Virus genome (UHGV): UHGV-1351408
DNA from: a virus
Reading direction: 5' to 3' (one strand)
DNA: 64,000 bases
Shown: positions 38,444 through 40,114 of the stretch, one piece after another
Layout: the number at the start of each line of letters is the position of its first letter
How positions within the stretch are numbered: the stretch's first letter is position 1
Notes under the pieces: generated by a model
Told to the model about the DNA's origin: nothing
The model's database searches: none
Seen by the model: the letters and a program-made list of their open reading frames with translations, nothing else
Program-made: the position numbers and the translations under genes

Positions 38444-38712
38444 CATCACTTAAGAGTCTTTTAAAAGGGTTTTTAAGTGATGTCTGGTAAAGTATGGTTC
38501 TGTCCGGTAATGCGATGTATGCTATGGTTTGGTGTGGGTAGTTAGTCTCAGCTACATTAAAATGAGACTTACCTTTTTAAAAGGTCTTTAAGAGGGTCTT
38601 TTAATGAGGTGGGGTCTGGTTTGGTATGGTAATGCGAGGTATGGGTCAGGTGGGGTGAGGTGTAGTTAGGTCTGGTATGGGTGGATGGTAGTAGCCACAT
38701 TAAAAATCTACC
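38444..38712. repeat. Two tandem ~130-nt G/T-rich hairpin-bounded elements (units A and B)
   Basis: A 38444-38573: CATCACTTAA/TTAAGTGATG hairpin, C-poor GGTATGG-type run, terminal hairpin AGTCTCA/TGAGACT. B 38574-38712: CTTTTTAAAAGGTCTTTAAGAGGGTCTTTTAATGAGG head, G/T run, terminal hairpin GGTAG/CTACC. Paralogous to 39849-40114. Confidence 0.6.
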
Positions 38713-38788
38713 AAGTTTCTAAAGAGTCTTCTGTTGAGGGTTCTTTACAAACAACTTAACAATCAACTAAAGTGTGGAGCTAAATGCT

Positions 38789-39376
38789 ATGAAACTGTTA
38801 AATATCAAAATCACTGGTACTCGTCCTTTCCTGAGCCACGCTGATACACTGTCAGACCCATTAAACCCTCTGACAAAATATCACAAGTCTCTGTCCAGTA
38901 AACGTAAAAAGACCGACGAAGACTATGCGCTCTTAGCAGAAAGCCAACTGGTAACTTCTTGTTACTACGATGAGCAGCTAGGTTTTGTTATGAACGGTGA
39001 GATGATTGAGGCTTGCATCAAGTCTGGTGCGAAACTCAACAAACTTGGTAAGGTGATTGACCGAGCCATTATGCTGACAGATGTAGTCTTCCCAATGACT
39101 ATCAAGAACTGTCCAGCAAACCCACAAGAACTTGCTAAGAATCCAGACTTTATCTATGCTAAGTCTGTTAAGATTGGTACAGCACGAGTTATGAGCTACC
39201 GTCCAATCTTCCGCGACTGGTCTGTAGAGTTCGGTTTGATGTTCGATGAAGAGCAAATCACCAAAGAGGAACTCCTGATGGTTCTGGAAAATGCTGGTAA
39301 CCTTTGTGGTGTAGGTGATTGGCGTCCACGCTTTGGTCGTTTTTCTGTAGAAGTTATTTCAGAAGGTAATGTTTAA
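38789..39376 (+). CDS. Hypothetical protein (196 aa), first gene of the repeat-flanked cassette
   Basis: ATG at 38789 (track ORF begins at a GTG, 38774); no motif recognised. Confidence 0.55.
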
Positions 39377-39378
39377 TT

Positions 39379-39819
39379 ATGAATACAAAAGCATTAGCAG
39401 CAAAGTTTAGTTACGGTGACACTGTATCACATTCTGAGATGGACACCTTCTTAGGTATTGTGAAGCCAACTTATCAAGGTGACATTGTTAAGTACGAAGA
39501 TGAAATGAAGGCTTATGCACTTACACGTCTAAACCGACTTGAGAAGTTTATTGAGAAACTTCTTAAAGAAGAGAAGATTTATCTGGTTGCTTCAATGGGT
39601 GTTGGTTATCGTGTGGTTGAACCTAAACATCAAGCAACTATTGCAAAACGTAAAATGTCTGGTAAGATTGGTCGTGCTTTAAAACAAGCCACTCAAGCAA
39701 TTGAGAATGTGAACACTATGGCACTTAGTCATCAAGAACGTTCACGACTGATTGAACAGCAAAACCATTTAGCTGCTATGAAAGCTAACATTAACAAGCA
39801 ACGTAGAAAACCTTTCTAA
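39379..39819 (+). CDS. Hypothetical protein (146 aa), second gene of the repeat-flanked cassette
   Basis: ATG 2 nt after the upstream stop; basic C-terminus (KQRRKPF); no motif recognised. Confidence 0.55.
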   Translation: MNTKALAAKFSYGDTVSHSEMDTFLGIVKPTYQGDIVKYEDEMKAYALTRLNRLEKFIEKLLKEEKIYLVASMGVGYRVVEPKHQATIAKRKMSGKIGRALKQATQAIENVNTMALSHQERSRLIEQQNHLAAMKANINKQRRKPF

Positions 39820-39828
39820 GTTGACTAG

Positions 39829-39855
39829 GTAGCCTCTTCGGAGGCTCCTTTTTAA
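39829..39855 (+). terminator. Intrinsic terminator
   Basis: AGCCUC-UUCG-GAGGCU hairpin followed by UUUUU. Confidence 0.65.
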
Positions 39856-40114
39856 AAGGTCTTTAAACAGGGTCTTTTAATGAGGTTTGTTATGGTCAGG
39901 TATGGTGTGGTGTTGTAAAGTTTGGTGCGGTCAGGTTAGGCTTGGTATGGGTAGTTAATCGAAACTACATAAAAATTCGATTACATCACTTAAGAGTCTT
40001 CTAAGAGGATTTTTAAGTGATGTCTAGTCAGGTATTGTCCGGTATGGCAAAGCATGGTTCGGTTCGGCAGGGCTTGGTATGGAAGGATGGTAGTAGCCTT
40101 ATAAAAAATCTGCC
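39849..40114. repeat. Two tandem ~130-nt G/T-rich hairpin-bounded elements (units B' and A')
   Basis: B' 39849-39982 shares the unit-B head and ends in hairpin AATCGAA/TTCGATT. A' 39983-40114 shares the ACATCACTTAA/TTAAGTGATGT hairpin and ends in hairpin GGTAG/CTGCC. Confidence 0.6.

Follow-up and report, generated by a model that had tools for sequence, protein, structure and literature searches.

What are the 4 repeated units that occupy 2 intergenic regions of a phage genome (UHGV-1351408), and why does each end in a hairpin whose stem changes in sequence yet stays complementary? In the window, the 64,000-nt stretch of this genome that was analysed, an alignment of the units places them at 38444-38572, 38571-38716, 39847-39985, and 39984-40118, each about 130 nt long, and bears out the original prediction that every one of the 4 ends in a hairpin. 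They are split between an intergenic region at 38380-38788, after a DNA ligase gene, and another at 39820-40206. Each unit consists of 3 modules: a 5′ element of about 35-39 nt that comes in 2 types, a G/T-rich tract with GT every 5 nt, and the terminal hairpin (Table 1). The best DNA matches of the window phage are Felixounavirus, many genomes of which are 88-92% identical to the region, and the phage is a Felix O1-like coliphage. A profile of the 4 units recovered 1 to 3 units per intergenic region, in both regions, at 21 related loci, and the lengths of the units at these loci vary by multiples of 5 nt. The Felix O1 genome paper does not mention the repeats of these units.

Table 1. Features of the putative VIPR locus, given as positions in the window (S1 and S2, stems 1 and 2; L3, loop 3).
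Feature	Coordinates	Strand	Description
Sigma-70-like promoter	38386..38413	+	TTGACA-16 nt-TATACT, 11/12 matches; upstream of first vrRNA array
5′ inter-unit element type A, ahead of unit 1	38444..38482	+	imperfect palindrome CATCACTTAAGAGTC...AAGTGATG; sequence-conserved
Unit 1 guide tract	38483..38537	+	11 YNNGG repeats, 5 with degenerate GG
Unit 1 tail (type X1), predicted pseudoknot	38536..38572	+	S1 38538-38541/38552-38555; S2 38544-38550/38563-38569 (AGTCTCA/TGAGACT); A-rich L3 38556-38562
5′ inter-unit element type B	38571..38604	+	CCTTTTTAAAAGGTCTTTAAGAGGGTCTTTTAATG; unit alignment
Unit 2 guide tract	38605..38680	+	8 YNNGG + extra G at 38645 + 7 YNNGG; repeat count
Unit 2 tail (type Y1), predicted pseudoknot	38679..38715	+	S1 38681-38684/38695-38698; S2 38687-38691/38708-38712 (GGTAG/CTACC)
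vipr gene	38789..39376	+	195 aa; RAMP-like guide-binding protein
ORF in vap1 (vipr-accessory protein) position	39379..39819	+	146 aa; 145/146 identical to SUSP1 ORF after vipr
Intrinsic terminator-like hairpin	39831..39846	+	after protein genes, then CCTTTTT; terminator scan
5′ inter-unit element type B, ahead of unit 3	39847..39880	+	unit alignment
Unit 3 guide tract	39881..39950	+	14 YNNGG repeats
Unit 3 tail (type X2), predicted pseudoknot	39949..39985	+	S1 39951-39954/39965-39968; S2 39957-39963/39976-39982 (AATCGAA/TTCGATT)
5′ inter-unit element type A, ahead of unit 4	39984..40022	+	unit comparison
Unit 4 guide tract	40023..40082	+	12 YNNGG repeats
Unit 4 tail (type Y2), predicted pseudoknot	40081..40117	+	S1 40083-40086/40097-40100; S2 40089-40093/40110-40114 (GGTAG/CTGCC, one U.G pair)

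The open reading frame between the 2 arrays is identical at 192 of 195 residues to PDB 36pp_D, the “SUSP1 Vipr protein” (98.5% by tblastn to the SUSP1 genome, NC_028808), and roughly 118 phage loci encode a Vipr that is nearly identical. The residues H17, E71, M72, R138, C173, D177, W178, and R179, which contact the GGY bases of the RNA, are all present in the window protein at the same index. The ninth contact residue named for Vipr, T175, reads V in the window, and since the window protein is the same as the 36pp chain over that stretch, the discrepancy lies in the labelling of the paper. The ORF that follows stands in the position of vap1, a name that we infer from the locus description in 10.64898/2026.04.26.720920. 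Pfam has no family for either protein, and PHROGs places them only in families of unknown function. Distant homologs of Vipr lie amid tracts with a period of 5, which pointed to a protein-RNA system. A tRNA search of the window found none.

VIPR is an RNA-guided DNA-silencing system first reported in 2 bioRxiv preprints from 2026 (10.64898/2026.04.26.720920 and 10.64898/2026.04.26.720927). According to these preprints, Vipr belongs to the minimal RAMP proteins and polymerises along vrRNAs built from 9-16 YNNGG repeats. In each repeat the protein grips GGY and leaves NN to pair with DNA, where successive dinucleotides are separated by one skipped target base. This binding silences transcription of competing phages and satellites, and the system is proposed to predate CRISPR. 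The preprints define a SUSP1 clade by more than 90% identity to SUSP1 Vipr. In this clade, an invariable 3′ tail comes after the repeats and folds into a pseudoknot, a model based on 5 sequences compared by eye in 10.64898/2026.04.26.720920, where SUSP1 vrRNAs are also reported as RNAs of about 100 nt in sRNA-seq that co-purify with Vipr in pull-down. [quoted passage not shown]

The window shares with this clade its Vipr identity, the GGY-contact residues, an ORF in the vap position, YNNGG tracts, pseudoknot tails, and targets that follow the skip rule. We consider it very likely that the 4 units are vrRNA genes of a type II, SUSP1-clade VIPR system in a Felix O1-like coliphage and that the hairpins are stem 2 of the tail pseudoknots. 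The hairpins are in this sense an already known feature of a very recently described system. Expression and processing of the 4 vrRNAs of the window are predictions, the sRNA-seq data being those of SUSP1.

The tracts have the composition expected of guides in this code. Among 89 distinct tracts, Y is a pyrimidine in 100%, entropy at the NN positions is 1.85-1.93 bits, and the 2 G positions are G in 78% and 99%. By our count, SUSP1 vrRNA1 has 12 YNNGG repeats, equal to the 12 protomers of the published cryo-EM structure. In unit 2, one 6-nt repeat breaks the 5-nt register, no target was found for this unit (see below), and it may be defective. Upstream of the tracts, the palindrome of the type A 5′ element is conserved in sequence; compensatory changes were looked for in it and none were seen, so it is not claimed as an RNA helix. 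The guide-RNA context of the hairpins was not recognised in the original prediction.

The stems of the 4 hairpins lie at exactly the positions first proposed, including the single U.G pair of unit 4, and correspond to S2 in Table 1. Each tail contains a second helix, S1, in which GTAG (units 1 and 3), GTGG (unit 2), and AAGG (unit 4) pair with CTAC, CCAC, and CCTT. The 5′ strand of S1 lies just upstream of the stem of the predicted hairpin and the 3′ strand is the 5′ part of its loop, and this strand order (S1a, S2a, S1b, S2b) makes each tail an H-type pseudoknot, with 4 bp in S1, 5-7 bp in S2, an L1 of 1-2 nt, an L2 of 1-3 nt, and an A-rich L3 of 7-9 nt. The simple hairpin with a 12- to 16-nt loop that had been proposed therefore keeps its stem and loses its plain loop. 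The same division applies to the loop core, which had been described as conserved. Its A-rich stretch is conserved indeed, with T22 and A24-A27 of the 37-nt tail invariant among 27 distinct tails; its first bases are not, and the AC, AC, and TT that start ACATTAAAA, ACATAAAAA, and TTATAAAAAA are the 3′ end of S1 and covary with bases upstream of the stem. The tail of unit 2 differs from that of SUSP1 vrRNA1 by one base, the first base of L3. The S1 and S2 pairs as assigned here (tail columns 3-6 with 17-20 and columns 9-13 with 30-34) are supported by covariation counts, and the three-dimensional fold of the window tails is predicted.

A tail-anchored search returned 123 tails, comprising 23 distinct 37-mers from about 29 loci, which fall into 4 families (X1, X2, Y1, and Y2). 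The formal count was made on an ungapped alignment of these 23 phage tails and extended with 4 satellite-borne tails to 27 distinct tails, the sources being some 29 related phages and 6 satellites of E. coli. In the 23 phage tails, S1 is 100% paired with changes on both sides in 3 of its 4 pairs, and the 5 outer pairs of S2 are 99.1% paired with changes on both sides in all 5; 2 inner S2 pairs are present in X-type tails only. When the 3′ partner is slid by 1-3 columns in these tails, pairing falls to 28-40%, and 0 of 500 column shuffles attain the observed covariation score. Setting S1 one column out of register leaves 30.6% paired. Over the 27 distinct tails, 98.4% of cells are paired and 8 of the 9 pairs change on both sides, with slid controls at 30-43%; across the 2 counts, the 5 outer S2 pairs stand at 97-99%. 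The covariation rests on 4 or 5 tail families only, and the independent substitution events are few. This count on a larger alignment, which the original prediction had called for, finds the pairing maintained and upholds its central claims: the stems differ and remain complementary (controls between 28% and 43%), and covariation at homologous positions exceeds chance, as selection on a structure would have it.

Could the hairpins instead be intrinsic terminators, or stabilisers of the 3′ ends of intergenic transcripts, with no pseudoknot and no guide-RNA role? One related GenBank record does place “terminators” in the intergenic regions concerned, a run of T begins 3 bases downstream of the X1 tail, and a separate classical terminator follows the satellite vrRNAs. 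Against this, a terminator scan of 35-41 kb found a single site, at 39831-39846, which is none of the 4 hairpins. A Rho-independent terminator has a G+C-rich stem, a 3- to 8-nt loop, and a directly adjoining U tract; here the stems are AT-rich, the loops are 12-16 nt, and 3 of the 4 stems have no U tract. A terminator also has no need of the covariation between the 5′ half of the loop and upstream bases, and cryo-EM resolved a pseudoknot on the near-identical SUSP1 tail. We regard the terminator explanation as very improbable.

The palindromes might alternatively act as DNA, either as protein-binding sites or as cruciforms. The GenBank record of phage KhF3 notes a repeat in the same intergenic region as a “possible binding site of StbAB,” and the units are tandem direct repeats. 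However, some of the pairing exists only through G.U pairs, in GGTAG/CTGCC of the window and in AATCGGA/TTCGATT of most relatives, which become C.A mismatches on the other strand. The sixth S2 pair of unit 3 is A-U in the window, G.U in most relatives, and G-C in 2, and the U.G pair of unit 4 stands where relatives have C-G. One S2 pair passes through UA (Y1), UG (window unit 4), and CG (Y2), and another occurs as CG, GU, GC, and AU; the G.U intermediates that link these pair states fit only an RNA transcribed from the + strand. Wobble pairs are irrelevant to recognition of a duplex, a DNA site would keep its sequence rather than its complementarity, and the SUSP1 RNAs co-purify with Vipr. A role at the DNA level is accordingly most improbable.

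Another structured alternative is a small ligand-sensing pseudoknot of the preQ1-I riboswitch kind, in which a short P1 is combined with a short P2 and an A-rich 3′ strand lies in the P1 groove. The resemblance is one of architecture only, namely the H-type layout and an A-rich loop 3 similar to CCUUAUAAAAAAUC. An Rfam cmscan of 37500-41000, which included the preQ1 families, returned only chance-level snoRNA and miRNA matches at E-values up to 10. What follows 3 of the 4 tails is a further unit or a promoter, not a regulated ORF, and each tail forms the 3′ terminus of a guide RNA bound by protein, so that a riboswitch is scarcely credible here.

Taken singly, the hairpins are ordinary for this DNA. 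Hairpins with 5-bp stems, at most one G.U pair, and loops of 12-17 nt have about 26 start positions in each kb of the + strand of the window, perfect 7-bp stems occur at 0.69 per kb, and when the four 37-nt tails are folded as nested structures the z-scores reach only -0.5 to -2.1. Single hairpins are therefore not above chance and the case rests on homologous position and covariation, by which chance palindromes in AT-rich intergenic DNA are almost certainly dismissed: in about 29 phages and 6 satellites every unit has its tail at the same place, and 98.4% of cells are paired as against 30-43% when the partner is slid.

Other candidates were set aside along the way. Tandem nut-like antitermination sites, composed of a boxA-like AAGRGTCTTTTAA, a GT-rich boxC-like tract, and a boxB-like hairpin, were superseded by the Vipr match and the VIPR preprints. 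A lambda boxB has a 5-bp stem and a 5- to 6-nt A-rich loop and lies a few bases after boxA, whereas the loops here are 12-16 nt, the hairpins follow the boxA-like AAGRGTCTTTTAA by 55-75 nt, and the resemblance to boxA was judged by eye. The match to SUSP1 Vipr and the VIPR preprints likewise displaced a sponge RNA for a TRAP-like ring protein, an R-loop replication origin (a strong promoter lies ahead of the G-rich RNA), Rho rut sites (the minus strand is C-rich), and Chi-like or RecA-preferred GT-rich recombination hotspots.

If the units are vrRNA genes, one Vipr protomer would bind each YNNGG pentamer, grip its GGY, and present the 2 variable bases. The variable dinucleotides would then recognise double-stranded DNA, passing over one target base between one dinucleotide and the next, and transcription of competing elements would be silenced. 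The predicted hairpin would be stem 2 of a compact H-type pseudoknot within the invariable 3′ tail, whose 4-bp stem 1 would connect the nucleotides that directly follow the last repeat with the 5′ part of the hairpin loop and leave its A-rich remainder as loop 3. [quoted passage not shown] Such a cap role would explain why the pairing and the A-rich L3 are constrained and the identity of the stem bases is free to drift. This explanation would cover the guide tracts and the tails; the 5′ inter-unit elements fall outside it.

Targets of the guides were sought in satellites. A blastn search of the tract and tail of unit 2 against E. coli genomes matched unannotated DNA in 42 of 5,426 genomes, and 6 of these loci were taken for a target scan. 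Five of the 6 are integrated elements of about 11 kb with serine recombinase and tape-measure genes (4 with an annotated baseplate gene), and the sixth (L037), a degraded island, lacks these structural genes. The integrated elements match the satellite described in the preprint account of VIPR. Each of the 6 loci carries one vrRNA, whose tail is of type Y1 or of a new variant with C-G in place of A-U at one S2 pair.

The scan compared the NN code of each guide, under the one-base-skip rule and with mismatches allowed, with these 6 satellite loci only and set the result against shuffled guides. The unit 1 guide matches a hypothetical gene of the APEC O18 satellite at 22 of 22 bases, where shuffled guides reach at most 18. 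For unit 3, the best match is 23 of 28 (shuffled maximum 21) in a hypothetical gene of strain 503025, and for unit 4 it is 22 of 24 (shuffled maximum 19) in a homologous gene in 2 further strains. Besides APEC O18, strains FAM21845 and 2013C-3492 are among the carriers of predicted targets. The control guides SUSP1 vrRNA4 and vrRNA2 gave 21/22 and 27/32. All 6 sites examined have their skip at codon position 3. For unit 2, neither the separate halves nor the halves joined with a junction gap of 1-4 nt had a target above the shuffled background in the 6 loci. Exact full-length one-skip patterns of units 4 and 3 had no match in IMG/VR; targets surfaced only with satellite loci from E. coli genomes and with mismatches allowed. 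The 185-aa satellite protein targeted by units 3 and 4 has no homology to Vipr and no Pfam match.

The closest known relative of this locus is that of SUSP1 itself (NC_028808, PDB 36pp), in which Vipr is 98.5% and the following ORF 99% identical to the window. Both have the gene order ligase, vrRNA array, vipr, vap, vrRNA array, and they share the YNNGG code, Y1, X1, and Y2 tails, the satellite target family, and the upstream promoter, that of the first array in the window preceding vrRNA1 in SUSP1. The vrRNAs are laid out 2 + 2 in the window and 1 + 3 in SUSP1, and every one of the guide tracts differs between the 2 phages. The X2 tail type (AATCGAA/TTCGATT) of window unit 3 is missing from SUSP1, SUSP1 has C-G at the place of the U.G pair of window unit 4, and the 6-nt repeat in the middle of the unit 2 tract is a further difference. 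By best DNA matches the window phage belongs to Felixounavirus, whereas SUSP1 is a Suspvirus.

More distant VIPR loci, of the P. fulva clade and others, resemble the window in that GGYNN tracts flank homologs of vipr and vap with 37-40% protein identity (metagenomic loci L023, L026, and L027). Among these distant homologs the tracts read GGTNN in one metagenomic phage and GGCNN in others, so that some VIPR loci use GGC rather than GGT. Their tracts run straight into GGTTTTTT and the ribosome-binding site of the next gene, and the SUSP1-type tail is absent. In 10.64898/2026.04.26.720927, the P. fulva complexes are likewise described without a 3′ pseudoknot.

Beyond VIPR, the crRNA handles of Class 1 CRISPR systems offer a similar arrangement, in which a variable guide is capped by a conserved structured part and each repeat or segment of the guide is covered by one RAMP-fold protomer; this comparison is drawn in the discovery paper (10.64898/2026.04.26.720920). 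VIPR differs in that its guide is non-contiguous (2 bases in 5), its cap is a 3′ pseudoknot rather than a repeat hairpin, and it has neither adaptation genes nor a spacer-repeat array, each guide being a separate unit. In architecture the tails resemble frameshift-stimulating pseudoknots and preQ1-I and SAM-II aptamers, with which they share the H-type order, short stems, and an A-rich loop 3. As in H-type pseudoknots generally, triple-base contacts of L3 would be expected in the tails. Unlike these classical pseudoknots, the tails have no Rfam match, no frameshift site, and no regulated downstream ORF, and their role would be to cap a protein filament.

The original finding of the hairpins, which drew on the sequence only, amounts to an independent rediscovery of the structured cap at the 3′ end of VIPR guide RNAs. 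Beyond the preprints the present analysis adds a formal pair count over 27 distinct tails (5 by eye in the preprint) and 2 kinds of tail with further compensatory changes, the X2 family that SUSP1 lacks and the satellite variant. It also adds predicted natural targets for 3 of the 4 guides of this phage and the apparently out-of-register guide of unit 2, a possible test of how strictly the filament needs the 5-nt period. A further reading, which we put forward as speculative and rather unlikely, is that the presence of 4 or 5 tail families within single arrays is selected rather than the product of neutral drift, and that satellites borrow Vipr by tail mimicry. In the satellites a vrRNA with a tail of type Y1 or derived from it is present and no vipr gene is annotated, and they therefore may mimic the tail to use the Vipr of a helper phage. 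If selection is indeed at work, stems that differ could keep adjacent tails of one precursor transcript from pairing wrongly with each other, make recombination between tandem units rarer, or determine which partners join in the 3′-to-3′ filament dimers.

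Each of the four guide RNA (vrRNA) genes, units 1 to 4, opens with a conserved 5' element that contains two direct boxes, AAGRGTCTTTTAA, which by eye are similar to the rrn boxA. The type A form of the element is an imperfect palindrome, and its variants lack compensatory changes. The 5' element may serve in processing, as a promoter or as a spacer. The box pair occurs a third time, as AAAGAGTCTTCTGTTGAGGGTTCTTTACA, at 38719-38750 shortly before vipr, without a repeat tract; a weak promoter-like site (38744-38773) overlaps this copy. The -10 hexamer of the array promoter and its likely start site are covered by an inverted repeat with arms GGTGAGTA and TACTCACC, which is kept in SUSP1, a phage with a type II VIPR system.

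In the guide tract of unit 1, the repeats with a degenerate GG are TAAAG, TTCTG, TAATG, CGATG, and TATGC; despite this, its NN code (the variable dinucleotides of the guide) matches a satellite gene of E. coli APEC O18 at 22 of 22 positions. In unit 2, an extra G breaks the 5-nt register and divides the tract into 8 + 7 repeats. Because the junction, GGTATGGGT, resembles the end of a normal tract, this arrangement suggests that two guides have been fused. A one-skip scan of the six satellite loci found no target for the unit 2 tract.

Coordinates of the features discussed (positions without a locus name refer to the window)
Feature	Position	Remarks
Inverted repeat	38402-38441	Arms GGTGAGTA 38402-38409 and TACTCACC 38434-38441
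5' elements, four units	38444-38482, 38571-38604, 39847-39880, 39984-40022	Conserved
Unit 1 repeat tract	38483-38537	GG degenerate in 5/11 repeats
Unit 1 matched site	L041 10030-10061	Minus strand; satellite gene, E. coli APEC O18
Unit 2 repeat tract	38605-38680	Extra G at 38645 (TATGG-G-TCAGG)
185-aa satellite gene	L039 11981-12538, L040 11156-11710, L038 11900-12454, L041 11921-12478	
Satellite vrRNA	L037-L042, near 14000 or 15000 of each locus	
Varying GenBank annotations, vrRNA region	L001 1671-1681; L002 1739-1772, 3211-3255	
Distant VIPR locus	L022 3600-4880	146-kb viral contig; about 13 tandem ~100-nt units
Other distant loci	L023 3066-3155, 3625-3710; L026 3058-3350, 3825-4000	

In the distant VIPR locus L022 the array architecture differs from that of the window: in every unit a GT-rich tract comes after a GAACGAAGCCGCTTCGCAAGAGGCGGTTTCC hairpin. 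Two others, L023 and L026, have GGCNN in place of GGTNN, and their tracts lack a SUSP1-type tail, terminating instead in GGTTTTTT immediately 5' of the next gene's ribosome-binding site.

None of the existing GenBank annotations examined (KhF3 and ASO1B) recognizes the guide RNAs; in ASO1B the vrRNA region has "terminators" called by TransTermHP, one of them located at the type A 5' palindrome, and in KhF3 it bears the label "possible binding site of StbAB". GU169904.1, a 147-kb record named Staphylococcus phage SA1, encodes at 91679-92263 a Vipr that matches the window's protein with 100% identity. This identity suggests that the record includes Felix O1-like coliphage sequence, and it may therefore be chimeric or contaminated.

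Of 5426 E. coli genomes, 42 contain a vrRNA whose tail is Y1 or Y1-derived. In 5 of the 6 chromosomal loci fetched (L037-L042) it lies inside an ~11-kb satellite with tape-measure genes, four of these satellites also having annotated baseplate genes. Unlike the window units, satellite vrRNAs lack the conserved 5' elements, and in most of the six loci a classical terminator follows. Units 3 and 4 share one predicted target, a satellite gene encoding a 185-aa protein without a Pfam match; this protein is not homologous to Vipr. Since no vipr gene is annotated in the vrRNA-carrying satellites of the six loci, the satellite presumably relies on the Vipr of its helper phage.
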